Below, piece after piece: positions 5,724 to 56,173 of a DNA stretch of 64,000 nt (the stretch's first letter is position 1; the number at the start of each line of letters is the position of its first letter). The DNA is taken from positions 640,001 through 704,000 of the forward strand of contig CBDDFZ010000002.1 in assembly GCA_965227515.1 (NCBI GenBank), given 5' to 3'. The position numbers and the translations under genes were made by a program. This DNA is from Alphaproteobacteria bacterium. GTDB lineage: Bacteria; Pseudomonadota; Alphaproteobacteria; CALKHQ01. The notes beneath the pieces were generated by a model. It saw only the letters and a program-made list of their open reading frames with translations, was not told the DNA's origin and ran no database searches.

Positions 5724-8700
5724 ATGGCGATGGGTTCATCCGGCTTGGCGTGGGACCTCCGCGCCGATGGCATCTTCACGAACAACGACACGCCTTCTTG
5801 GCTGGACGCACCACGCAGCGAGGCGTCGGGGCACGCCGGTGCGCGTGACCGGCACGATGCTGGCGCGTTCAACGCCGCCGACCCGGTTGTCCATGACAGA
5901 GACGGCATTCAGCACGCAGCCGGCGCCGCCATGCCGGATCAGCGCGGCGGCGCGCACGGCAAGCCGGGCGGCATCGACCTGACCGCCGATGACCTTTTCG
6001 GGGACGAAATTGCAGCGCAAGCTGCCACCTCGATCCCGACCGCCCAACCGGCAGGCCCCGGCGCTGACGGCGCGGTCGACCTGACCAAGATCGACCTGAC
6101 GATGCTGGCGCCGACCGACGAGCAGTATTTCGACCTGCAATGGCATCTGGCCTCGCCCGGCGGCTACAACATCAACGTCGTCGACGTGTGGGACGACTAC
6201 ACCGGCGCCGGGGTGAAGGTGGCGGTGCTGGACCAGGGCATCGACGCCAGCCACGTCGACCTGAACGACAATTACGACTTCGCGGCCCAGTATAGTTCGG
6301 TCAACGGCTCAGCCGTCGGCACCCCGCAGACCAGCAACGACAATCACGGCACCGCGGTCGGCGGCGTCATCGGCGCCGAGGTGAATGGCGAGGGTGTGGT
6401 CGGCATCGCCTACGAGGCCGATCTGGTCAGCATCTATTCGCCGCTGAGCGGCACGGTCGGCCAGTTGATGTCGCAGGCCACCAACGCGTTCAACTACTAC
6501 GACAACTACGACATCCTGAACAACAGCTGGGGCTTCGGCAACTACTTCTACTATGGCACCAGCTACGCCTTCGTGGACAACTTCGACGTCTACACGGCGC
6601 CGGGCAATGCCCTGGCCAATGCCATCGCCAACGGGCGCGACGGCCTGGGCGCCATCGTCACCTTCGCCGCCGGCAACACTGGGCTGTACGGCGACGACGT
6701 CAACCTGCACAGCTTCCAGAACAGCCGCTTCACCATCGCCGCCGGCGCCACCCAGGAGAACGGCGAGATCGCGTCGTTCAGCACGCCGGGTGCGGCCGTG
6801 CTGGTGTCGGCGCCGGGCGTCAGCATCGCCACCACCGACCGCAGCGGGTCGGCGGGCTATGTGTCGTCCGACTACGTCTACATCAGCGGCACGTCGTTCT
6901 CATCGCCGGCCACCGCCGGTGTGGTCGCGCTGATGCTGGAGGCCAATCCAGGGCTCGGCTGGCGCGACGTGCAGGAGATCCTGGCCTACTCGTCGCGGGT
7001 CAGCGACGACAGCGACCCGACCTGGCGGACCAACGGCGCGAACGACTGGAATGGCGGCGGGCTGCATGTCAGCGACTTCTTCGGCTACGGCCTGATCGAC
7101 GCGGAGGCCGCCGTTCGGCTGGCCGAAAGCTGGGCCAAGACCAACACTTTGGCCAACGAGGTCAGCCTGTCCGGCACCAGCGCCCCCAGCCTGGCGATCC
7201 CGGACACCGGCCCGAATTCCTCGTCGCCCACCGCGGCGCCGACCGATCGCACGTTCCATGCCGCCAACGCGGTCTCGGACACGATCACGATCACCGAGGA
7301 CATCCGGGTCAACCATGTCGAGGTCGACCTTAACATCAGCCATACCCGCATCGGCGACCTGATGGTGCGGCTGGTCTCGCCGGACGGCACCGAGAGCCTG
7401 CTGCTCAGCCAGGCTGGCAAGGGTTCGCTCGGCGGCTTCGGCTCCACCCAGTCGGGCGTGAATTTCACCTTCACCTCGGTGTTTCACTGGGGCGAAAGCT
7501 CGGTGGGCGACTGGCGGCTGGAAGTGGCCGACCTGAACTCCTATGGCAGCGCCAGCGGCACCCTGGTGGACTGGACGCTGGTGCTCTATGGCGAGCCGGC
7601 CAGCGCCGACCAGACGCTGATCATGACCGATGAGTTCGCGGCGATGCTGGCCGCCGACCCGTCGCGCGGCACCTGGGAGCTGCAGGAGGGTCAGCACACC
7701 CTGAACCTGGCCGCGGTGACCACCGACGTTAGCCTGAACCTGAACCTCGGCGCGGATAACGTGCTGGACACCGCCAATGCCGCGGCGACGACATTCACAT
7801 TCGTTGCCGAGGCCGGCGTGGCGCTTGCCGGGCCTCCAGGCATTGCCAGCGCCAAGGGCGGCAAGGGTTCCGACGTCATCGTCGGCAACGATCTAGACAA
7901 TACGTTCGACGGCGGCAACGGCGCCGACACGATCAGCGGCGGCAACGGCAACGACGTCATCGGCGGCGGCAATGGCGCGGACGTGCTCAACGGCGACGAC
8001 GGCGACGATACGTTGTCCGGTAACAACGGCCCCGACACGTTGAACGGCGGCGACGGCGTCGACACGCTGATCGGCGGCAATGGCGACGATTGGCTGGACG
8101 GCGGTCTGGATGGCGACTGGCTGGCTGGCGGCCTGGGCGACGACACCTATTTTGTCGACGACAGCGGCGACAGCATCACTGAGTTCTTCGGTGAGGGCAG
8201 TGACTCGGTATTCACGACCGTGTCGTTTGCGCTGCGCGATCACAGCCAGTTTCTGGAAAAGCTAACCCTGACCGGCAGCGACGACATCGATGGCACCGGC
8301 AACGGGCGCGTCAACACCATCACCGGCAACGACGGCGACAACATCCTGAACGGTGCCTGGCACAATGACACGCTCATCGGCGGTGCCGGCAATGACACGT
8401 TCCTGGATGATCAGGGCAGCGATCGTTTCATTGGCGGCCTGGGTGACGACGTCTATTTCGTCGACGACGCTGGCGACCGGATCGTGGAGTACGAGGGCGA
8501 AGGGATCGAGCTGGTGAACGCGTCGGTATCGTTTGCGCTGCGCGATCACAGCCAGTTCTTGGAAAAGTTGACCCTGACCGGCAGCGACGACATCGATGGA
8601 ACCGGCAACGGGCGCGTCAACACCATCACCGGCAACGACGGCGACAACATTCTGAACGGTGCCTGGCACAATGACACGCTCATCGGCGGTGCGGGCAATG

Positions 8701-46307: not shown

Positions 46308-47275
46308 CCCTTCTTCTCGCCCACCGCGATCAGGCAGTCGCCGTGGCCGGTGAGGCCGGCAAGGCAGAGCCAGGGGAACAGCAGGCCGCGCCACAGGCCC
46401 ATCAGCCCCATCACCAGCAGCGGGTTGCGCAGCGCGCGCAGGGGCTTCGGCGGGCGGGCGAACAGGGCGGCGACGGTGGACTGGGTGACCCAGATTGCAG
46501 GGGTCTGGGTGCGCACCGGCCGCGCCGCGAACCCGGTACGGCCCAGCGCGTCGGCCACGTCCTGCGCGCGGAAGTGGGTGATGTGGAACGGCACGTGCCA
46601 GTTGATCCACATCTTGCCGAACACGCCACGGAACCAGCTCCTGGCGTTCGGGCAACTGATCCAGACCTGGCCGCCCGGCGCCAGCAGCCGATGGATGTCG
46701 CGCAGCATGGCGTCGGGGTCCAGCGCGTGCTCCAGCACCTGGCTGATCACGATGACGTCGTAGCGGTGCGGCGGGTCGAAGTCGGCCAGATCGGCCTCGT
46801 GCACTTCGAACCCCTTGTCGCGGGCGGCGGCGGCGGCGACCGGGTTGAACTCCAGCCCGTCGGCGCGGAACCCGTTGCCGCGGTAGGCGACCATCTTGCG
46901 CCCCTCGTTGCAGCCGACGTCGAGCAGCCGGTTGCGGTCGGGCGCCGGCGGGCGCCATGCCTCGAACGAGATGTCGCCGTCGATGGCCAGGAATGCACGG
47001 TAGAGCGGCCCGCTCAGCAGCTTGGCGCGCAGCCGGGTATAGAGCCCATCCTTGGACCCGCCGAAATTGTAGTGCTTGGCGTAGAGGTCCTTTAGCTCGT
47101 CCGCTGTCGGGCGCGGCATGGTCTGTTCCAGCCCGCAGGCGTCGCAGCGCACGATGTCATAGGCGGCTTCGACCCCGAAGCGGGTGTCGCGCACGCCGAC
47201 CAGCACGGGCGAGAAGCTGTCGCCGTCGCACACCGCACACACGGTCCGGGGATTGGCCTCGGGCGCCGCGCTCAT
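46304..47275 (-). CDS. Class I SAM-dependent methyltransferase with N-terminal Zn ribbon (glycan-associated)
   Basis: CAVC...CDAC, LLDVGCNEG, VLEHALDP and WHVPFHITHF; overlaps the GT2 stop. Confidence 0.85.
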   Translation of the reverse strand: MSAAPEANPRTVCAVCDGDSFSPVLVGVRDTRFGVEAAYDIVRCDACGLEQTMPRPTADELKDLYAKHYNFGGSKDGLYTRLRAKLLSGPLYRAFLAIDGDISFEAWRPPAPDRNRLLDVGCNEGRKMVAYRGNGFRADGLEFNPVAAAAARDKGFEVHEADLADFDPPHRYDVIVISQVLEHALDPDAMLRDIHRLLAPGGQVWISCPNARSWFRGVFGKMWINWHVPFHITHFRAQDVADALGRTGFAARPVRTQTPAIWVTQSTVAALFARPPKPLRALRNPLLVMGLMGLWRGLLFPWLCLAGLTGHGDCLIAVGEKKG

Positions 47276-48213
47276 CGGTCGAGATAGGCCCGGTACTTGG
47301 TCGACATCGCCGAGTTCGGGTCCTTCAGCTCGGTCAGCTTCAGGCTGATCTGGTACTCGTGGAACGCACGCAGCAGGCAGTAGCGGAAGCCGATGCGGCC
47401 ATCCAGGAAGCCCATCTTGAATACGTACATGTAGAGGAACACGCACACCGAGCGCGCCGGCAGGTGGCGGTAGGCGAAGTTCTTCAGCGCCCGCCTGCGT
47501 CCCGGCCCCTTGGATCGGATATCGGCCTTGATGGCTTCCGTCCCGCGCCCGGTCAGCCGCCGGTGCACCTCCACCGCCTCCAGGCTGGTGTAGACGTTAT
47601 GGCGGTCCAGATAGCGCTCGATGCCCTTGTAGTCGTGGTGGACGAAGTGGTTCTTCAGGTAGCCGCTGTCGCCGTCCACCACCATGTGCTCGTGGACGAT
47701 GCGGTCCTCATAGCGGGCACGGCCACGCCGGAACAGCCGGAGCTGGTAATCGGGGTACATGCCGCCGTGCTTGATCCACTTGCCGGCGAACAGGTTCTGG
47801 CGCGCGATGTAGTAGCCGGCGGGCCCGTCGTCCCGCCACGCGCGGATGACCTCCTGGATCTCCGCCGCCAGTTCCGGCGTCACCCGCTCGTCGGCGTCGA
47901 CCCACAAGATCCAGTCGTGGGAGAAGTCGATGTTCTCGATTGCCCAGTTCTTGTGCACCGAGAACACGTCGAACACCCGCTGCTCGACGCGCGCACCCGC
48001 CGCGCGGGCGAGATCCAGCGTGCTGTCGTCGCTGTAGCTGTCGTAGACGATGACCTCGTCGGCAAAGGCGACGCAGGCCAGGCAGTCGGCCAGGTTGCGT
48101 TCTTCGTTCTTGGTCGGCACCACCACCGACAGCGGAGCCCTGGGCGTGTCGGTGTGGCGCGCAGTTGTCGCGGGTGTGGCGGCGTCTTCCAGCCGTGTCA
48201 TCGATCCATCCAT
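47272..48213 (-). CDS. Glycosyltransferase family 2 (KdtX/WaaE-like)
   Basis: VVVPTKNEERNL, DSYSDD, WVDADE, YPDYQLRLF, VHE and GFLDG. Confidence 0.92.
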   Translation of the reverse strand: MDGSMTRLEDAATPATTARHTDTPRAPLSVVVPTKNEERNLADCLACVAFADEVIVYDSYSDDSTLDLARAAGARVEQRVFDVFSVHKNWAIENIDFSHDWILWVDADERVTPELAAEIQEVIRAWRDDGPAGYYIARQNLFAGKWIKHGGMYPDYQLRLFRRGRARYEDRIVHEHMVVDGDSGYLKNHFVHHDYKGIERYLDRHNVYTSLEAVEVHRRLTGRGTEAIKADIRSKGPGRRRALKNFAYRHLPARSVCVFLYMYVFKMGFLDGRIGFRYCLLRAFHEYQISLKLTELKDPNSAMSTKYRAYLDR

Positions 48214-48331
48214 GGGGGCATGCTAACCCGCGAGCAGGAAACGACTCTTAAACGCAGATGGCCTGTTGTAGTCCTTACGCGCGGCATTCGCGACCCTGAC
48301 TCGGCCCCCGAAAGCATCCGGACCCCGGCAG

Positions 48332-50143
48332 ATGTGCGGCATCAACCTGATCTTTGGCTATGGCGACGACGCCCCGCCGGTCGACGAGGCCGCGGTGCTG
48401 GCGACCCGCGATGCCATGCAGCCGCGCGGGCCGGACGGTGCCGGCCTGTGGGTCGACGAGGGCAGGCGGGTCGGCCTGGGCCACCGGCGGCTGGCGATCA
48501 TCGACCTCAGCGAGGCCGGCGCGCAGCCGATGCACACCGCCGATGGCAAGCTGACCATCACCTACAACGGCGAGATCTACAATTACCGCGAACTGAAGGC
48601 TGAGCTGGAGGCGGAGGGCGTCGCGTTCCACTCCGACAGCGATACCGAGGTGATGCTCCACCTCTATCGCCGCGACGGCCCGGCGATGTTGGAGTGCCTG
48701 CGCGGCATGTTCGCGCTGGCGATCTGGGACGCCGACAAGCAGGGCATGCTGCTGGCGCGCGACCCGTTCGGCATCAAGCCGCTCTACATGGCCGACGACG
48801 GGCGCACGCTGAGCGCCGCGAGCCAGGTGAAGGCGCTGATCGCGGGCGGGGTGGCGCCGGGTTCGGCGAACCCCGCCGGTCATGTCGGGTTCTTCCTGCT
48901 CGGCTACGTGCCGGAGCCGCATACGCTCCACGCCAACATCACCGCGTTGCCGGCCGGGCACTGGCGCTGGATTGACCGCAATGGCGGCGACCGCACCGAG
49001 TGCTATGCCGATATCGCGCGCATCGTCACCGAGGCGACGCCGGCCACCGACAGCGCCAATCTGGCCGCCGCCCTGGCGGACAGCGTGACGGCCCATCTGG
49101 TCGCCGACGTGCCGGTCGGCGTGTTCCTGTCCGCCGGGCTCGATTCCACCACCATCGCCGCGCTGGCGACCCAGTCCGCCAAGACCAGCCTGCGCACGGT
49201 CACCCTGGGGTTCGAGGAGTTCAAGGGCAGCATTCACGACGAGGTGCCGCTGGCCGAAGAGATGGCGCGTGCGCTGGGCAGCGATCACACAACGGTCTGG
49301 GTTTCCGGCAGCGATTTTGCCGAGGCGGCCAGCGATGTGCTGGCGGCAATGGACCAGCCCTCCATCGACGGCGTGAACAGCTATTTCGTCGCCAAGGTGA
49401 CGGCCGGCACCGGGCTGAAGGTGGCGCTGTCCGGCCTGGGCGGCGACGAGCTGTTCGCGGGCTATCCGAGCTTCCAGCAGGTGCCGGCCCTGGTCTCCCG
49501 CTTCGGCTGGCTGGGGCGGATGGGCGGACCGGCGCGCCTGTTGCGGCGGCTGACGGCGCCGGTCGCAGGTCGCCTGACCTCGCCGAAATATGCCGGCGTG
49601 GCCGAATACGCCGACAGCATCGCGCGCGGCTATTTCCTGCGCCGCAGCCTCTATATGCCGTGGGAGTTGGCGAGCGTTTTGGACCGCGACATGGTCCGCC
49701 AGGGACTTGCCGACCTGGGCCTGGACGCGCGCATGGCGCGAACCGCCAATGGGGCGCGACCGCGCCAGGCGCTGTCGGCGCTGGAACTCTCCTGGTACAT
49801 GCGCAGCCAACTGTTGCGCGACGCCGACTGGGCCGGCATGGCCCATTCGCTGGAGGTCAGGGTGCCGCTGGTCGACATCGCGCTGTTGCGTACGGTGACG
49901 CCGCTGATCGCAAGCCGGAACCCACCGGGCAAGCGCGACATGGCGGCGGCCCCGGCCACCCCGTTGCCCGACGCCATCCTCAACCGCCCGAAGACCGGTT
50001 TCTCGGTTCCGGTGCGCGACTGGCTGATGCAGGGCGCGCTGGCGGATGCCGCCGCAACAGCCGACTCCAATGCCCAACGGGGCCTGCGCGGCTGGTCTCA
50101 GCACGTCTATCGTCACGCGGCGGGTCAAGGTGTGCTCGGTTGA
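48332..50143 (+). CDS. asnB: Asparagine synthase (glutamine-hydrolysing) family amidotransferase
   Basis: MCGI, RGPDG, GHRRLAIIDL, NGEIYN, FLSAGLDS, LSGLGGDELFAGY and LEVRVP. Confidence 0.92.
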   Translation: MCGINLIFGYGDDAPPVDEAAVLATRDAMQPRGPDGAGLWVDEGRRVGLGHRRLAIIDLSEAGAQPMHTADGKLTITYNGEIYNYRELKAELEAEGVAFHSDSDTEVMLHLYRRDGPAMLECLRGMFALAIWDADKQGMLLARDPFGIKPLYMADDGRTLSAASQVKALIAGGVAPGSANPAGHVGFFLLGYVPEPHTLHANITALPAGHWRWIDRNGGDRTECYADIARIVTEATPATDSANLAAALADSVTAHLVADVPVGVFLSAGLDSTTIAALATQSAKTSLRTVTLGFEEFKGSIHDEVPLAEEMARALGSDHTTVWVSGSDFAEAASDVLAAMDQPSIDGVNSYFVAKVTAGTGLKVALSGLGGDELFAGYPSFQQVPALVSRFGWLGRMGGPARLLRRLTAPVAGRLTSPKYAGVAEYADSIARGYFLRRSLYMPWELASVLDRDMVRQGLADLGLDARMARTANGARPRQALSALELSWYMRSQLLRDADWAGMAHSLEVRVPLVDIALLRTVTPLIASRNPPGKRDMAAAPATPLPDAILNRPKTGFSVPVRDWLMQGALADAAATADSNAQRGLRGWSQHVYRHAAGQGVLG

Positions 50144-50203: not shown

Positions 50204-51577
50204 GTGCCGATTGGGAATCGCCGTCAAGTCGCGGAGGCCACGTGCCGCGCCGGGCTTCTGAAGGGTGCGCGTTGTGGCGGCGCGCTCGCACTGATCGCAG
50301 GCGTGGCGCTGTTCGCGCCGCCGGCCCTTGCGATCACCGCCGAGGAGTTCCTTGCCTCGCCGGGCGCGCAGGCGTTCACCGACGGGCGCTACCAGGACGC
50401 GATTGACGGGTTCGAGGCGCTGTTGGTCGACAACCCCGGCGACCCGACGATCCGTCGGTACATCGCCATCGCCTACCAGCAACTGGGCGACCACCAGGCC
50501 GCGGTCGACACCCTGGACAGTGCCATCGCCGATTCGCCCGGCACGGTGGCCCTGCATTATTATCGCGCGCTGTCGCGGCTTGAACTGGGCGATGCCGATG
50601 GCGCGGTCGACGATCTGAACCAGGTCGTGGCGCTGGAGCCGAGCGGCCTCTATGCGCAGCAGGCGGCGACGTCCCTGGCGGCCCTGGGGGCGGGCGACGG
50701 CACGGTGCCCGCCCTGGGCGACCGGCCCTGGGATGCCTCGCTGGAAGTTGGCCTCCAATACGATTCCAACGTGCCCTCCGCGGCCAGCGACGCTCCGGGA
50801 CCGAAGGCGGCGTTTCGCGCCTATGAGGCGCTGTCGGGCGCGTACCGCTTCGACCTGAGCGACACGGTCGAGCTGGAAGCGAGCGGCGACGCGTATCTGA
50901 GCCAGCACTTGAAGGCCGACCTCAACGACTTCGACGTGATGTCCGGCACCATCGGCCTGGCCGGCCGCTATGCCGACTTCGTCGGCGAGCTGCCGTTTGC
51001 CCTGGAGACCGCCTACGAGCTGAACGGCACCCTGCTGGATGGCGAGCTGTTCAGCTATTCCCATTCGCTGCGCACGTCGGCGGTGGCCGCCATCCAGGAG
51101 ATATGGCTGGCGGAAGTGTTCCACGAGATTTCGCTGAACGAGTTCACCAACAACGGCGAACTCGGCACCGTCACCTCGCGCGATGCCATCCGCAACGATG
51201 TCGGCACCCGCCAGTACGTGTTCGTCGACGGGCGCGAGAGCTACGTGTTCGCCGGCTATACCTTCGGCCGCAATCTGGCGTCTGGCAGCAACTTCGATTT
51301 CTACAGCCATGAGGTGGAGATCGGCGGCGTGGCCCAGGTGACCGATGCCATCCAGATCGACGGCACCGCGACCTACACCTACCAGCACTATCCGAACTTC
51401 ATCGGCACCACGACGCGCAGTACCGACCAGTATGAGTTCTCGCTGGGGGCCACCACCGAGATCTTCGACAATGTCGATCTGTCGGCTGGCTGGACCTACA
51501 CGGACGAGAACTCGTCGATCCAGTCATTGGATTACAATCGCCATATCGGCACGATTTCGATAGGATACACGTTCTGA
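50204..51577 (+). CDS. TPR + outer-membrane beta-barrel protein (Slam/DUF560-like)
   Basis: Signal peptide (..APPALA), three to four TPR-like helical pairs, barrel onset WDASLEVGLQYDSNV, alternating aromatic strands, C-terminal ISIGYTF (BAM signal). Confidence 0.75.
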   Translation: MPIGNRRQVAEATCRAGLLKGARCGGALALIAGVALFAPPALAITAEEFLASPGAQAFTDGRYQDAIDGFEALLVDNPGDPTIRRYIAIAYQQLGDHQAAVDTLDSAIADSPGTVALHYYRALSRLELGDADGAVDDLNQVVALEPSGLYAQQAATSLAALGAGDGTVPALGDRPWDASLEVGLQYDSNVPSAASDAPGPKAAFRAYEALSGAYRFDLSDTVELEASGDAYLSQHLKADLNDFDVMSGTIGLAGRYADFVGELPFALETAYELNGTLLDGELFSYSHSLRTSAVAAIQEIWLAEVFHEISLNEFTNNGELGTVTSRDAIRNDVGTRQYVFVDGRESYVFAGYTFGRNLASGSNFDFYSHEVEIGGVAQVTDAIQIDGTATYTYQHYPNFIGTTTRSTDQYEFSLGATTEIFDNVDLSAGWTYTDENSSIQSLDYNRHIGTISIGYTF

Positions 51578-51682: not shown

Positions 51683-52000
51683 ATGATGACGATGTATGGA
51701 AGCAGACTGGCGGTTCTGGGGATCGCGGCGGCATTCGCGCTGGCACCCGTTGCCGCGTCGGCACAGTCCGGAAATGACGCCAACGGCAACGGATCGAGTG
51801 TCGATGAACGGATCGACCTGGCGCTTGGCACGCTGGGCAACTTCGGCAATCTCGATCTGGCCAAGTTCCTGACCGAGATTCCCGACCTGCCGCGGCCCAA
51901 TCACGGCCCGCAGCCATTCCTGCAGCAGCCGGAAGACGCGCAGATCGACTTCACGCCGCCCGGCACCACGGATTCCATCACGCCACGCGGTGTGAAGTAA
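51683..52000 (+). CDS. Small secreted hypothetical protein
   Basis: GAGG RBS; signal peptide RLAVLGIAAAFALAPVAASA|QSG; host-like codon usage. Confidence 0.75.
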   Translation: MMTMYGSRLAVLGIAAAFALAPVAASAQSGNDANGNGSSVDERIDLALGTLGNFGNLDLAKFLTEIPDLPRPNHGPQPFLQQPEDAQIDFTPPGTTDSITPRGVK

Positions 52001-52248: not shown

Positions 52249-52276
52249 TGAACCGGATCGCGCTTTGGAACGACCA
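52249..52276 (+). promoter_or_regulatory. Candidate ECF-type (autoregulatory) promoter
   Basis: TGAACC-N16-CGACCA about 40 nt upstream of the sigma start, resembling the general ECF AAC/CGW consensus. Confidence 0.4.
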
Positions 52277-52313: not shown

Positions 52314-52877
52314 GTGAACGCCAATCCCTCAGACGCGGAACTGCTGAGCCGGGTTGCGGCACAAGACCGTCAGGCCATTGGCCCTCTGTATGAACGGTTT
52401 CAGCGTCGCATTTTCCGGTATCTGGTCCGCATGGTGAAGGACGAAGGGATGGCCGAAGATCTGGTCAACGAGGTGTTTCTGGATGTCTGGCGCGGCGCCG
52501 GCCGGTTCGAAGGCCGTTCCTCGCCGTCTTCCTGGATGTTCTCGATTGCCCACAACAAGGCGGTCAGCGCGTTGCGGCGTCGGCGGGAGGCTTCTCTCGA
52601 CGAGGACGACGCAGCGGCGATCGAAGACGACGCGGCTCTTCCCGACCAGACCGTTCACGAAGACGACGTGCGGAAAATGATGAGGAGGTACCTTGACAAG
52701 CTGTCACCCGAGCACAAGGCGGTAATCGAGCTCACCTACTACCAGGAGCTTTCGATCAAAGAGATCGCGGAAATCGTCGACTGCCCGGAAAACACGGTCA
52801 AGACCAGGATGTTCCACGCAAGAAAGCGCCTGCGCGAAATGATGGGATCGCGCATGAGCCGGGAAAACGTATCATGA
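52314..52877 (+). CDS. ECF sigma-70 family RNA polymerase sigma factor
   Basis: Region 2 AEDLVNEVFLDVWR...WMFSIAHNK; region 4 LSIKEIAEIVDCPENTVKTRMFHAR. Confidence 0.95.
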   Translation: MNANPSDAELLSRVAAQDRQAIGPLYERFQRRIFRYLVRMVKDEGMAEDLVNEVFLDVWRGAGRFEGRSSPSSWMFSIAHNKAVSALRRRREASLDEDDAAAIEDDAALPDQTVHEDDVRKMMRRYLDKLSPEHKAVIELTYYQELSIKEIAEIVDCPENTVKTRMFHARKRLREMMGSRMSRENVS

Positions 52878-53599
52878 CCGACAACCGCACCACAGCCGCA
52901 GAGCGCCAGCAGTCGCTGGAAGAGCTTCTCCCCTGGTATATCAACGGCACGCTCTCTGAGCGCGAAAGCGCCGAGGTCGAAGCCTGGCTGGCCGAGGATG
53001 CCGACGCCCGCGCACTCGTTGACGAGATGCGCCTGGAAAGCGTCGTTACCCGTGCCGCCAACGATGAGATCGCTGGGCCGAGCCCGGCGTCCTTCGACAA
53101 CCTGATGGCGATGATCGACGCCGAAAGCCCGGCAGAGCAGGCCGCACCCGTGGCCCAGGCTCGCCCGGCCGTGCGCCCCAGTCTGATCGAACGGCTGACC
53201 GGTTGGTTGCCGACCCCGTCGCTGAAGGCAGCCGGTGCGCTGGCCGGTGTCGTGCTGGTGGCCCAGGCGGTCGCGATCGCGGTGCTGGTCTCGTCCGGGC
53301 CGGCCGACCAGGCCGATCCGGCCCAGGGCGACGCGAACAACAACTTCATCACCGCCAGCGATGGCACGGGCGCGGCCATTGATGGCCCGGCGCTGCTGGT
53401 CATGTTCGACGAGGCGACGACCATGGGTGACGTGGCGGGATTGCTGGACGCCAACGCCCTGCGCATTGTCAACGGCCCCGAGGCCGGGTTCTACACGGTG
53501 GTGCTGACGGCGGAGGGCGCCGATGCGGCGACCGCCGAGGCGCTGGCCGCGACGCTGGCGGAAGATCCCCGGGTGCAGTTCGCGTCGGTCACGAATTGA
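52874..53599 (+). CDS. Membrane-anchored anti-sigma factor with periplasmic propeptide-like domain
   Basis: ATGA overlap with the sigma gene; N-terminal ELLPWYINGTLS..E...VEAWL (anti-sigma domain lacking the HxxxCxxC Zn ligands); one TM; about 70-aa C-terminal alpha/beta domain. Confidence 0.85.
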   Translation: MTDNRTTAAERQQSLEELLPWYINGTLSERESAEVEAWLAEDADARALVDEMRLESVVTRAANDEIAGPSPASFDNLMAMIDAESPAEQAAPVAQARPAVRPSLIERLTGWLPTPSLKAAGALAGVVLVAQAVAIAVLVSSGPADQADPAQGDANNNFITASDGTGAAIDGPALLVMFDEATTMGDVAGLLDANALRIVNGPEAGFYTVVLTAEGADAATAEALAATLAEDPRVQFASVTN

Positions 53600-53753
53600 T
53601 CAGGGGCGACCCGGCACGCCAAGACTGACATATTGTAGGCGGAATTCAGGGGGCTAGATAGGTTGATCTGGCCCCACGCCGCACCGGCCGATGGCGGCAG
53701 CGCCGCCAACCGGATGTAACCCTGCCGGCGCGGCCAATCATAGTGAGGCGATC

Positions 53754-55064
53754 ATGTTCGACATTGGACGACGCGCGATTGCTCTGCTTTGCACCCTGAT
53801 GCTCATCGTGGCGTCGGTGCCGGTGTGGGTGCCGACAGTGGATGCCCAGACAACGGGCGGCGCCACGGCGGTGCCGCCGAACCTGCCGCCCAACAATCCG
53901 CCCGGCAACGACGATATCACCCGTCCACCGGGTCCAACCGTGCTGGATGACGCCATCATCCCGCCGAGCCTGCCCGGCGGCGGTCCGCTTGAGTTGCCCC
54001 CCGGTAGCTTCGTCGACCGGCAAGTGATGATCACCATTCCCGCCAGCGCGCCGCCCGGCACTGGGCAGGCCATTGCGCAGGGCCAGGGTTTCGGCGTGAT
54101 CCGCGAGTTCAATGTCAACTCGCTCGGCCTGCGCGCGCTGGTGCTGAGCCTGCCGGGCGATTTGGACATTCCCTCCGCGGTCGATTTCCTGCTGCTGATC
54201 GGCGGGGTCAACTCCGCGCAGCCGGTCTATCGGCATAGCCTGGCGGCCGGGCCGCAATACGCGCTGGACACGCTGCGCGTGCCGGCCGCACACCAATATG
54301 CGACCGGCAACCAGATCCTGGTGGCGGTGATCGATTCCGGTGTCGACGCCAATCATCCCGCGCTGGCCGGCCGGGTGGTGGGCGTCACCGACTTTTCCGG
54401 CAGCGGCGGACGCCCCGACAATCACGGCACCGCGGTCGCCGGCATCATCGCCGGCAGCGGCCAAGTGACCGGCATCGCGCCCGGCGCCAGCATTCTTGCC
54501 GTTACCGCGTTCAGCCCGCAGGGCGGCGGTGGCGAAGGCACCTCCGACCGCATCGTGCAGGCGGTCGACTTCGCCATCCTGTCCGGCGCCGACGTCATCA
54601 ACATGAGCTTCTCCGGCCCCAACGACCCGTTGCTGAACCAGACCGTGCAGCGCGCGATTGCCGGCGGCATCGTGGCCGTCGCGGCGGCGGGCAATGGTGG
54701 CCCGTCGAGCGGGCCGAGCTGGCCGGCGGCCATCCCCGGCGTTATCGCGGTCACCGCCACGGACCCGAACGACCAGCTCTATGGCAATGCGACGCGCGGC
54801 AGCTTCGTCAGCCTGGCGGCACCGGGCGTGCAGGTGCTCTGCGTTACCGCCGGCGGCGGTTTCGGCCTGTTGTCCGGCACGTCGATGGCGGCGGCCCATG
54901 TCAGCGGGCTGGCGGCCCTGATCCTGGAGCGCAATCGCGGCGCCAGCCCGGCGCAGGTGCTCGCCATCTTGCAGGCCTCGGCGCGGGACCTGGGCGCACC
55001 GGGACGCGACGCCGAGTTCGGCTACGGGCGGATCGATGCGTTGGGGGCGGTGCAGGGCCTCTAG
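53754..55064 (+). CDS. Secreted S8 subtilisin-like serine protease
   Basis: Signal peptide, Pro-rich linker, prodomain; VAVIDSGVD, NHGTAVAG, AAAGN and GTSMAAAHV. Confidence 0.93.
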   Translation: MFDIGRRAIALLCTLMLIVASVPVWVPTVDAQTTGGATAVPPNLPPNNPPGNDDITRPPGPTVLDDAIIPPSLPGGGPLELPPGSFVDRQVMITIPASAPPGTGQAIAQGQGFGVIREFNVNSLGLRALVLSLPGDLDIPSAVDFLLLIGGVNSAQPVYRHSLAAGPQYALDTLRVPAAHQYATGNQILVAVIDSGVDANHPALAGRVVGVTDFSGSGGRPDNHGTAVAGIIAGSGQVTGIAPGASILAVTAFSPQGGGGEGTSDRIVQAVDFAILSGADVINMSFSGPNDPLLNQTVQRAIAGGIVAVAAAGNGGPSSGPSWPAAIPGVIAVTATDPNDQLYGNATRGSFVSLAAPGVQVLCVTAGGGFGLLSGTSMAAAHVSGLAALILERNRGASPAQVLAILQASARDLGAPGRDAEFGYGRIDALGAVQGL

Positions 55065-55075
55065 GACGGCCCGAT

Positions 55076-56173
55076 ATGCAGCGCGTGTTCGGCGGGCTCC
55101 TGGCCGCGGCCGGGCTGTTGCTGGCGGGCTATGCGGCGCTTGCCGAGCCCGGTGACACGGCGTGGACCGCGCCCGCGTTCCCCGGGCTCGGCCCACCCCC
55201 GGCCCCCGCCGACAACCCGACGACCGAGGCCAAGGTCACGCTCGGGCGCTTCCTGTTCTACGACAGCCGCCTGTCCGGGCCGGGCTATATGTCGTGCGGC
55301 ACCTGCCACCAGCCGGCGCTGGGCTTTGCCGAGGATCGCCGGCAGGCCATCGGCATCACAGGTGAGCGGCATCCGCGCAACACGCCGGGGCTGGCCAATG
55401 TCGGCTATTTCCCGGTGCTGACCTGGGCCGATCCGACCGCGACCGCGCTGGAAACGCAATCGTCGACGCCGCTGTTCGGCACCCATCCGGTGGAAATGAT
55501 GGCCGCGCCGCGCCGGGCCGAAATCCTGCTCAGGTTCAGCACCGACGGCACCTATCGCCGCCTGTTCGCGGCAGCCTTTCCCGAGGCGCCGGATGCGGTG
55601 GATTTCGAACACATCCAGATGGCGCTGGCGGCGTTCCAGCGCACGCTGATTTCGGCCGACAGCCCCTATGACCGGCATGCCGCCGATCCGATGTCCGGCG
55701 CCATGGACGCGGCGGCGGTGCGCGGCATGGAGCTGTTCATGAGCGACCGGCTGGGCTGCGCCGGCTGCCATGCGCCGCCGTTCTTCACCGACACCGCCTA
55801 TCACAACACCGGGCTCTATGACGAGGACGGCGCGGGCGCGCTGCCGGAAGGCAACCAGGGCATCGTCGAGTACACCGGCGACCCGGCCGACATGGGGCGG
55901 TTCCGCACCCCCAGCCTGCGCAATGTGGCGGTGACCGGCCCCTACATGCACGACGGCTCGGTGGCGACGTTGGAGGAGGCGGTCGACCACTATGCCGCCG
56001 GCGGACGCGCCGGCTCGCCCTTGACCGATCCGCTGGTGACCGGGTTTGCGCTCGATGCTGGCGAGCGCGCCGACCTGGTCGCGTTCCTTGAGGCGCTGAC
56101 CGACGAGACGTTCCTGACCAACCCCGCGATCCAGTCGCCGTTCCGGTATCAACCGGAAGCGCTGGGCGACTGA
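55076..56173 (+). CDS. Di-heme cytochrome c peroxidase superfamily protein (MbnH/MauG-like)
   Basis: Signal peptide; two CxxCH motifs (CGTCH, CAGCH); LGRFLFYD.RLS, RNTPGLANV, LTWAD and FRTPSLRNVAVTGPYMHDGS. Confidence 0.88.
   Translation: MQRVFGGLLAAAGLLLAGYAALAEPGDTAWTAPAFPGLGPPPAPADNPTTEAKVTLGRFLFYDSRLSGPGYMSCGTCHQPALGFAEDRRQAIGITGERHPRNTPGLANVGYFPVLTWADPTATALETQSSTPLFGTHPVEMMAAPRRAEILLRFSTDGTYRRLFAAAFPEAPDAVDFEHIQMALAAFQRTLISADSPYDRHAADPMSGAMDAAAVRGMELFMSDRLGCAGCHAPPFFTDTAYHNTGLYDEDGAGALPEGNQGIVEYTGDPADMGRFRTPSLRNVAVTGPYMHDGSVATLEEAVDHYAAGGRAGSPLTDPLVTGFALDAGERADLVAFLEALTDETFLTNPAIQSPFRYQPEALGD

Follow-up and report, generated by a model that had tools for sequence, protein, structure and literature searches.

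The window analysed here is a 64,000-nucleotide (nt) stretch of an Alphaproteobacteria bacterium genome (assembly GCA_965227515.1, contig CBDDFZ010000002.1, positions 640,001 to 704,000 of the forward strand). At 52,314 to 55,064 it carries three consecutive genes, encoding an extracytoplasmic function (ECF) sigma factor, a single-pass anti-sigma factor and a secreted S8 subtilase. We propose that these genes constitute a conserved, probably self-activating module. The anti-sigma factor ends in what is probably a tail-less relative of subtilase prodomains, which would serve as a docking handle for the partner protease; docking would be followed by a site-1 cut by this partner, the action of an RseP-type protease and release of the sigma factor. 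We favour this chain of events tentatively and give it somewhat less than an even chance. Gene order, protein folds, the family-level likeness of the domain to prodomains, synteny, the promoter motif and a complex model that passed its controls were established directly.

The sigma factor gene (52314..52877, +) begins with GTG and encodes 187 amino acids (aa). The anti-sigma factor gene (52874..53599, +; 241 aa) overlaps it, the anti-sigma ATG and the TGA stop of the sigma gene forming ATGA. The S8 zymogen gene follows at 53691..55064 (+), where the longest open reading frame (ORF) encodes 457 aa. A public gene call places its start at M22, position 53754 (P0151, 436 aa). This is probably the true start, giving a plausible signal peptide, and protease residues are numbered here according to the 436-aa version. 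A sequence scan between the three genes found no terminator-like or sigma-70-like promoter site, which speaks for the module, as may the tricistronic operon blr3042–3044 of Bradyrhizobium japonicum (PMC3420878).

The third protein was identified as a subtilase by Pfam (Peptidase_S8, PF00082, E 2.6e-46), by phmmer against subtilisin BPN' variants (E 1.2e-38) and by Foldseek, the best match of its model being unprocessed pro-subtilisin E (3whi, 376 columns, E 5.9e-30). By inspection, residues 1–32 (53754..53849, +) form a signal peptide region, with a helix at 3–20 followed by ...VDAQ. Residues 27–77 were disordered and proline-rich in the AlphaFold2 model, which was computed from alignment A3. 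This alignment contains 96 of the 120 listed protease relatives, 24 having been left out for low coverage or very different length. The catalytic domain (residues 169–436, 54258..55061, +) holds the triad D194 (54333–54335), H224 (54423–54425) and S377 (54882–54884), aligned to D32/H64/S221 of subtilisin BPN'. The triad and the oxyanion residue N314 were invariant in the 96 aligned relatives. The first-pass annotation of this DNA had described an ATGA overlap of the sigma and anti-sigma genes followed by a secreted S8 protease with an intact D/H/S triad, and coordinates, codons and the 96-sequence alignment all agree with it.

The proposal turns on the periplasmic domain of the anti-sigma factor. 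The anti-sigma family comprised 1598 representatives at E ≤ 0.001, of which 206 reached E ≤ 1e-10; most are 210–250 aa long and align end to end. Alignment A1 was built from 117 of the best 120 matches (P0005, P0047 and P0089 were left out), and all counts over 117 homologues refer to its sequences. According to the AlphaFold2 model computed from A1 (mean predicted local distance difference test score, pLDDT, 85.2), the domain spans residues 173–241 (53390..53596, +) up to the free C-terminus and consists of β173–178, α184–193, β196–203, β206–211, α218–230 and β234–240, with pLDDT > 90. The protease's own prodomain (residues 86–159, 54009..54230, +), also modelled at pLDDT > 90, presents its elements in the same β-α-β-β-α-β order (β86–96, α103–110, β114–121, β126–132, α139–147, β154–159). 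A shared pattern of this kind had been noticed in the two sequences at first pass, and the models of both proteins display it.

Family-level sequence comparisons linked the domain to subtilase prodomains. PF22148, the Pfam family of the fervidolysin N-terminal prodomain (Fervidolysin_NPro-like), matched 17 of the 117 homologues (best E 2e-6), and besides zf-HC2 no other Pfam family was present in more than two of them. In alignment A2, made up of 38 C-terminal domains excised from genome loci, PF22148 matched seven (best E 1.5e-6) and the next family two. The domain of one orthologue with an adjoining S8 gene (L005) scored 24.2 bits with PF22148, the cut-off being 21. PF22148 and PF00082 occurred together on 15 of the 120 listed protease relatives. 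Alignment of A2 against A3 with hhalign returned a single hit, which placed domain columns 19–83 on protease residues 89–155 (probability 55.6, E 1.2e-4), so that its strands and helices fall on those of the neighbour's prodomain. Fold matches of the domain included the PC1/3 prodomain (on furin, Z 7.8), pro-subtilisin E (Z 7.5), the subtilisin prosegment (Z 6.9), EpiP (Z 6.9) and POIA1 (Z 6.8). In the ESM Atlas, the two named clusters nearest to residues 165–241 (scores 0.91 and 0.89) carried PF22148 on 14% and 11% of their members, a lead only. Homology of the window's domain to fervidolysin-type prodomains is likely from these comparisons, short of proof for this copy. The earlier description of the domain as prodomain-like thus stands with modest support, drawn from PF22148 on relatives, the hhalign register and the fold matches.

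The association of the domain with a neighbouring S8 gene was conserved. In a class-level sample of 401 genomes, 51 matched A1 at E ≤ 1e-5 (the unpublished genome G242 is included in this tally only), and 14 of the 51 contained a full-length match. When the window's proteins were searched by tblastn, an S8 gene lay downstream on the same strand in all 14 full-length loci. Among the 16 fetched loci whose anti-sigma factor matched in the N-terminal domain only, one had an S8 gene. A phylum-level sample of 401 genomes, searched at E ≤ 1e-12, contained 30 matching genomes and yielded 27 new loci, 23 of them with an S8 gene within 1.5-kb flanks. Combined, S8 genes were located within 1.5 kb in 37 of 41 full-length loci from the sampled Pseudomonadota, as against 1 of 16 where the domain was absent; a survey of the co-occurrence of sigma factor, anti-sigma factor and S8 protease had been suggested at first pass. 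The S8-linked loci span 15 family labels and at least two classes of the phylum, and kin among them are not independent samples. At L040 and L041 the S8 gene precedes the sigma gene, in the same orientation, resembling the −1 subtilase of some ECF26 subgroups. The genome of the window (5.5 Mb) contains four S8 genes, one copy of the anti-sigma domain and one M50 (RseP-type) site-2 protease. With so few S8 genes and a single copy of the domain in the genome, and with the arrangement found again in 37 of 41 loci, their adjacency in the window is not due to chance.

The four remaining loci were heterogeneous. At L057, a long ORF after the anti-sigma gene reaches the contig end with a prodomain-like stretch and subtilase D and H motifs (BLASTP E 0.011), and probably represents a further S8 neighbour. 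At L063 (107–1486, −) and L065 (638–1492, −), the gene directly after the anti-sigma gene encodes a caspase-like Peptidase_C14 protein (E 1.3e-37 and 2.2e-39) with a signal peptide and the motifs YYAGHG and DACRNNPF. From the sequences, the partner protease seems to have been exchanged at these loci. Counting these two, a protease was linked in 39 of 41 loci, plus the probable S8 at L057. The partner at L063 and L065 is still a protease though not S8, which supports the idea of a private protease. L064, the weakest match, had no recognisable neighbour, its two ORFs being without Pfam match.

The end of the anti-sigma chain differed from that of a complete prodomain. In the hhalign register, its final residues RVQFASVTN-COOH lie over GVNSAQPVY of the protease; the chain stops opposite Y159 in the conserved AQPNY of the protease and does not extend to the RHSL expected to lead up to the maturation site. 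The end lies exactly five residues after F236 in 85 of the 117 homologues, the consensus at the C-terminus being V.F[VA].P..; the window's chain and those of the 85 homologues fall about four residues short of the inferred P1. Because the chain ends at the Y159 equivalent in the window as in these homologues, the domain family can be described, at the level of sequence, as a prodomain that lacks the tail for the active site. A few distant members, L060 (...AEPIDPGSQP), L061 and L062, extend further beyond the last strand.

To model the complex, protease residues 164–436 (with A3) were paired with anti-sigma residues 165–241 (with A1), leaving the linker outside the modelled chain, and three control pairs were run. 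The interaction prediction score from aligned errors (ipSAE) was 0.62 (0.64, 0.62 and 0.61 in individual runs), compared with 0.00 for the best control. The ipSAE mark applied is reached by 116 of 157 solved complexes and by 2 of 215 mismatched pairs. Contact agreement between runs was 100%, and partner pLDDT was at least 85. Confident contacts involved protease residues 166–167, 169, 223, 237, 338, 360, 362 and 365–372 and anti-sigma residues 175, 177, 203–204, 206, 235–236 and 238–241. On the anti-sigma side they include the invariant GP...G hairpin (203–206), and on the protease side residue 223 adjoins the catalytic H224. In BPN' numbering, the protease contacts correspond to 3–4, 6, 63, 80, 182, 204, 206 and 209–216. 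The modelled site is thus composed of the mature N-terminus and the 205–217 hairpin beside His64. The C-terminal residues 238–241 touch protease residues 369–371 (BPN' 213–215) and not the S1–S4 strands.

These results bear on the mechanism put forward in the first-pass annotation, a propeptide decoy whose free C-terminus would sit in the S1–S4 cleft of the mature subtilase and act there as bait or, in the manner of a cleavage product, as an inhibitor. Several of its elements held up: the domain is prodomain-like, it is linked to S8 genes, and the predicted complex with the mature protease scored 0.62 against 0.00. The seating of the C-terminus in the active site did not, since the chain ends at the Y159 equivalent and the modelled tail makes no S1–S4 contacts. 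The longer tails of L060–L062 could reach the cleft, and the consensus V.F[VA].P.. resembles the V..AQPNY of prodomains; however, the distance of about four residues to the inferred P1 in the window and 85 homologues, together with the contacts of residues 238–241, makes a decoy of this type very unlikely in our judgement.

The same homology, synteny and complex model would also suit a membrane-tethered inhibitor or folding helper, that is, a second prodomain acting in trans, with the sigma factor released by another signal or by titration without cleavage. Subtilase prodomains are known chaperone-inhibitors, which fits this account. However, the domain lacks the tail needed for tight inhibition, as do the 85 homologues that end at the same position, its modelled contacts avoid the S1–S4 equivalents, the protease already has a prodomain of its own, and C14 replaces S8 at two loci. 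We consider such a role unlikely.

The best reading of the domain is a docking or recognition module for the co-encoded protease and not an active-site plug. Under this docking model, the protease would be exported as a zymogen with its own prodomain, and once mature it would bind the anti-sigma domain and make the site-1 cut in the periplasmic part of the anti-sigma factor. A candidate cleavage or recognition site, as judged from conservation, is the juxtamembrane linker motif [YF]xTASG (FITASDG in the window, residues 158–164, 53345..53365, +). It is the best-conserved motif outside the folded parts, with Y/F in 104, T in 85, A in 97, S/T in 97 and G in 79 of the 117 homologues, and lies about 10 residues before strand 1; the surrounding linker is probably flexible, given its low pLDDT. 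The RseP-type site-2 protease of the genome would then free the sigma factor, which would transcribe its own operon from a TGAACC-N16-CGAC promoter and hence yield more protease. Cellular binding, the existence and position of the cut, the sequence of the steps and the trigger of protease maturation are the parts that we infer.

The geometry of the model permits a more specific version of the docking reading. The domain is C-terminal to the linker, so that, given the modelled pose and the geometry of subtilisin, a seat next to the prime side of the cleft would thread the linker through it with the polarity of a substrate. In this version, the handle would be a copy of the partner's prodomain that was taken over by the anti-sigma factor and lost its inhibitory tail, and that docks beside the prime side and feeds the linker into the cleft. 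The protease would act as a private site-1 protease, the sigma factor would report mature periplasmic protease with positive feedback, and C14 would have been swapped in for S8 in some lineages. We regard the complete scenario as possible but rather doubtful.

Several observations weigh against the docking model. The prodomain matches in the fold search were tied with ribosomal S6, ACT, RAM and RRM domains (Z 6–7.6), and Z 7–8 is the typical best fold score for any small model; therefore, fold alone decides nothing, and of the comparison with I9 and fervidolysin prodomains suggested at first pass it is the presence of prodomains among the top matches that stood, not their distinction from other folds. 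The window's own domain had no Pfam match at E ≤ 10. The A2 profile returned two chance-level rows from PDB sequences (E 0.49 and 1.5), fervidolysin not among them, and a plain hidden Markov model (HMM) of A2 scored below 6 bits on all 120 protease relatives. With this HMM, no domain reached 10 bits; three reached 5 bits, as against none among reversed sequences, and the best rows fell partly on the prodomain and partly on a C-terminal part of the catalytic domain. The modelled interface differs from the canonical prodomain site. We take the BPN' helices 104–116 and 133–144 to be the prodomain docking surface and strands 100–104 and 125–129 the tail site (1SPB, 1SCJ), and no confident contact fell in these helices or strands. 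Simple recall of solved prodomain complexes thus does not account for the pass of the model; the modelled pose may nevertheless be wrong, leaning as it does on residues 166–169 at the chosen construct start. Since the C14 partners lack an I9-like prodomain, mimicry of prodomains can be only part of the explanation. A protease encoded in the sigma factor's own operon would produce runaway positive feedback unless otherwise limited. Finally, in B. japonicum, blr3042, a paralogue of EcfQ heading the tricistronic operon blr3042–3044, is called enigmatic, and its deletion gave no phenotype (PMC3420878).

Outside the domain itself, the N-termini of both nearby proteases, the window's own prodomain included, gave no Pfam match at E ≤ 10. 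A word-based homologue search of the anti-sigma factor returned only the protein itself, and phmmer of the anti-sigma factor against PDB sequences gave nothing at E ≤ 10.

The tie in the fold search, the missing Pfam match in the window and the weak profile and HMM scores would fit an account in which the protease is mere output, as the main member of the regulon, while the domain senses an unrelated periplasmic cue and resembles prodomains only through a common fold. ECF operons often carry target genes, and the ECF33 entry of the published classification lists the subtilase as conserved context only. This account is at odds with PF22148 being the sole recurrent Pfam family on the domain and occurring also on the partner protease family, with the in-register hhalign hit on the neighbour's prodomain, with the protease linkage where the domain is present as against 1 of 16 loci without it, and with a complex model that passed while its controls scored 0.00. 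On balance we judge it improbable, and retain docking of the co-encoded protease as our working explanation.

The remainder of the anti-sigma factor has the probable layout of a class-I protein. Residues 8–84 (52895..53125, +) form a helical cytoplasmic anti-sigma domain in the AlphaFold2 model; in the fold search, residues 11–83 matched RsiW (5wuq_C, Z 6.7) and MucA (8z6g_A, Z 6.5). The zf-HC2 family (PF13490) matched the window's protein at E 0.0021 and 18.6 bits, below the cut-off of 22.2, and was matched by 52 of the 117 homologues. The HxxxCxxC zinc ligands are absent from the window's sequence (VEAWLAEDADA), confirming what was noted at first pass, and were found in 11 of the 117 homologues. 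A membrane-spanning helix was modelled at residues 115–140 (53216..53293, +). Q131 (53264–53266), in the middle of this helix, is kept in 105 of the 117 homologues, which is unusual for a simple anchor and could be relevant to recognition by a site-2 protease.

The sigma protein contains regions sigma-2 and sigma-4 only, as in the definition of ECF (group 4) factors. It matched Sigma70_r2 (PF04542, E 8.6e-19) and Sigma70_r4_2 (PF08281, E 4.4e-16) in Pfam and TIGR02937 in NCBIfam (113.5 bits, above the cut-off of 42.9), and its nearest specific NCBIfam model was PRK12515 (225.5 bits, just below the cut-off of 236). In the entries of the ECF classification supplement (PMC7826278), ECF33 is a proteobacterial group with a one-helix zinc-finger anti-sigma factor at +1 and, in subgroups s2 and s3, a subtilase at +2, and some ECF26 subgroups have a subtilase at −1. 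The one-helix anti-sigma factor at +1 and the subtilase at +2 of the s2/s3 context were both found in the window. We therefore suggest an ECF33s2/s3 type, an assignment by gene context and promoter only.

A candidate ECF-type promoter was found at 52249..52274 (+), 40 nt 5' of the sigma start codon, with TGAACC (−35) at 52249–52254, a 16-nt spacer and CGAC (−10) at 52271–52274. The motif [TC]GAACC-N15–17-[CA]G[AT]C was present 17–43 nt 5' of the sigma gene in 26 of the 41 homologous loci; a 27th regular-expression match (L056) was wrongly placed and not counted. The strict form TGAACC-N16-CGAC was present in 19 of the 41. According to the ECF33 entry of the supplement, the target promoter has the −35 element TGAACCTTT and a −10 element with AC, which is read there as self-regulation (PMC7826278). 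The window's candidate promoter, TGAACCGGA-...-CGAC, contains the TGAACC core of ECF33 and lacks the TTT extension. Sequences matching TGAACCTTT with up to two mismatches were not enriched in the window (62 compared with 57 expected). A regulon prediction from TGAACC-N16-CGAC was dropped because the 85 genome matches, against 17 for the backwards control, were too many and unspecific; the motif is too common for regulon calling in this GC-rich genome.

Some of the homologous loci showed further features. In a sub-clade without TGAACC-N16-CGAC (L015–L019, L057 and L058), the gene before the sigma gene ends in Y.WR..A.d..G..i..S before its stop, recalling the 'secreted repeat domain' context of some ECF26 subgroups, and these loci may belong to another ECF group. 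At L022 / L008 (G002:C83), from a close relative, the anti-sigma factor matched as two overlapping pieces in different frames (residues 4–99 and 90–237), reflecting either a frameshift or an assembly error in this 350-contig genome.

Other genes surround the module in the window. An MbnH-family di-haem enzyme gene (55076–56173, +) starts 11 nt after the S8 stop; its product matched TIGR04039 at 394.3 bits (cut-off 362.85) and CCP_MauG at E 6.9e-45. It was rejected as a part of the module, as it followed the S8 gene in none of 10 relatives examined. Upstream of the sigma gene, 50204–51577 (+) encodes an outer-membrane protein with tetratricopeptide repeats, a beta-barrel and a weak EpsL-like tail, and 51683–52000 (+) a 105-aa secreted protein without family. 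Conservation of these two genes at this position is confined to the window's own family (L010, L011 and L022). The region 47272–50143 contains a family-2 glycosyltransferase gene (minus strand) and a gene for a glutamine-dependent asparagine synthase, which together with the EpsL-like barrel suggests that an exopolysaccharide locus adjoins the module. Another of the four S8 genes of the genome also lies in the window; its catalytic domain (142.8 bits) is at 6204–7091 (+) in a 1080-aa open frame, with no anti-sigma factor of this family next to it.

A literature search, with subscription journals outside its scope, found no paper linking an anti-sigma periplasmic domain to a subtilase prodomain or describing such a mechanism. 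The gene triad itself is already catalogued as ECF33s2/s3 (Casas-Pastor et al. 2021), as had been suspected at first pass, and in some members the domain is already reached by a Pfam family; the new part, as far as the sequences indicate, would be the link between domain and protease and the mechanism that it implies. The window resembles ECF33 s2/s3 in its one-helix anti-sigma factor at +1 and its subtilase at +2, and its candidate promoter has the TGAACC core at −35 and AC in the −10 element. The ECF33 entry in the supplement (PMC7826278) treats the subtilase as conserved context and the anti-sigma factor as a zinc-finger type, with no mention in that entry of the periplasmic domain or of a role for the protease; the window's anti-sigma factor, in contrast, has no zinc ligands. 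EcfQ (s1) of B. japonicum, the only ECF33 member studied, has other neighbours and lacks an anti-sigma factor of this kind (PMC3420878). For RsgI of Clostridium thermocellum, proteolysis within the periplasmic anti-sigma domain is reported to be needed for signalling (PMC10328401). The RsgI cut is autoproteolytic and its input is polysaccharide binding, whereas here a separate protease is encoded alongside.

If the domain is a prodomain-derived handle, the consequences would extend beyond this locus. The module, which counts 1598 representative anti-sigma sequences, would then have a testable input mechanism; for most ECF sigma groups no input signal is known. The short list of site-1 proteases would grow by subtilases, and perhaps by caspase-like peptidases, and the prodomain fold would have gained a new use in recruiting a protease to its substrate. 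Compact, orthogonal transcription switches triggered by a protease could also be derived from the module; ECF33 sigma factors are already in use as synthetic parts.

Compared with known subtilase prodomains (PF22148, the BPN'/E propeptide and I9 types; 1SPB, 1SCJ, 3WHI and POIA1 1V5I), the anti-sigma domain has the same fold, aligns in register and is encoded next to a subtilase. It differs in being C-terminal in a separate membrane anti-sigma factor instead of N-terminal to the protease in one chain, in lacking the tail that fills S4–S1, and in a modelled pose away from the two surface helices. Regulated proteolysis of single-pass anti-sigma factors is known from RseA, with DegS and RseP, and from RsiW, with PrsW and RasP. 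As in those systems, the window's ECF sigma factor is probably held by a single-pass class-I anti-sigma factor, an RseP-type gene is present in the genome, and a periplasmic protease is the likely first cutter. We know of neither a same-operon site-1 protease nor a prodomain-related domain in RseA or RsiW systems. In the module described here, by contrast, the candidate site-1 protease is the subtilase of the same operon (caspase-like at two loci), and a domain of the anti-sigma factor is a probable relative of the prodomain of that protease.

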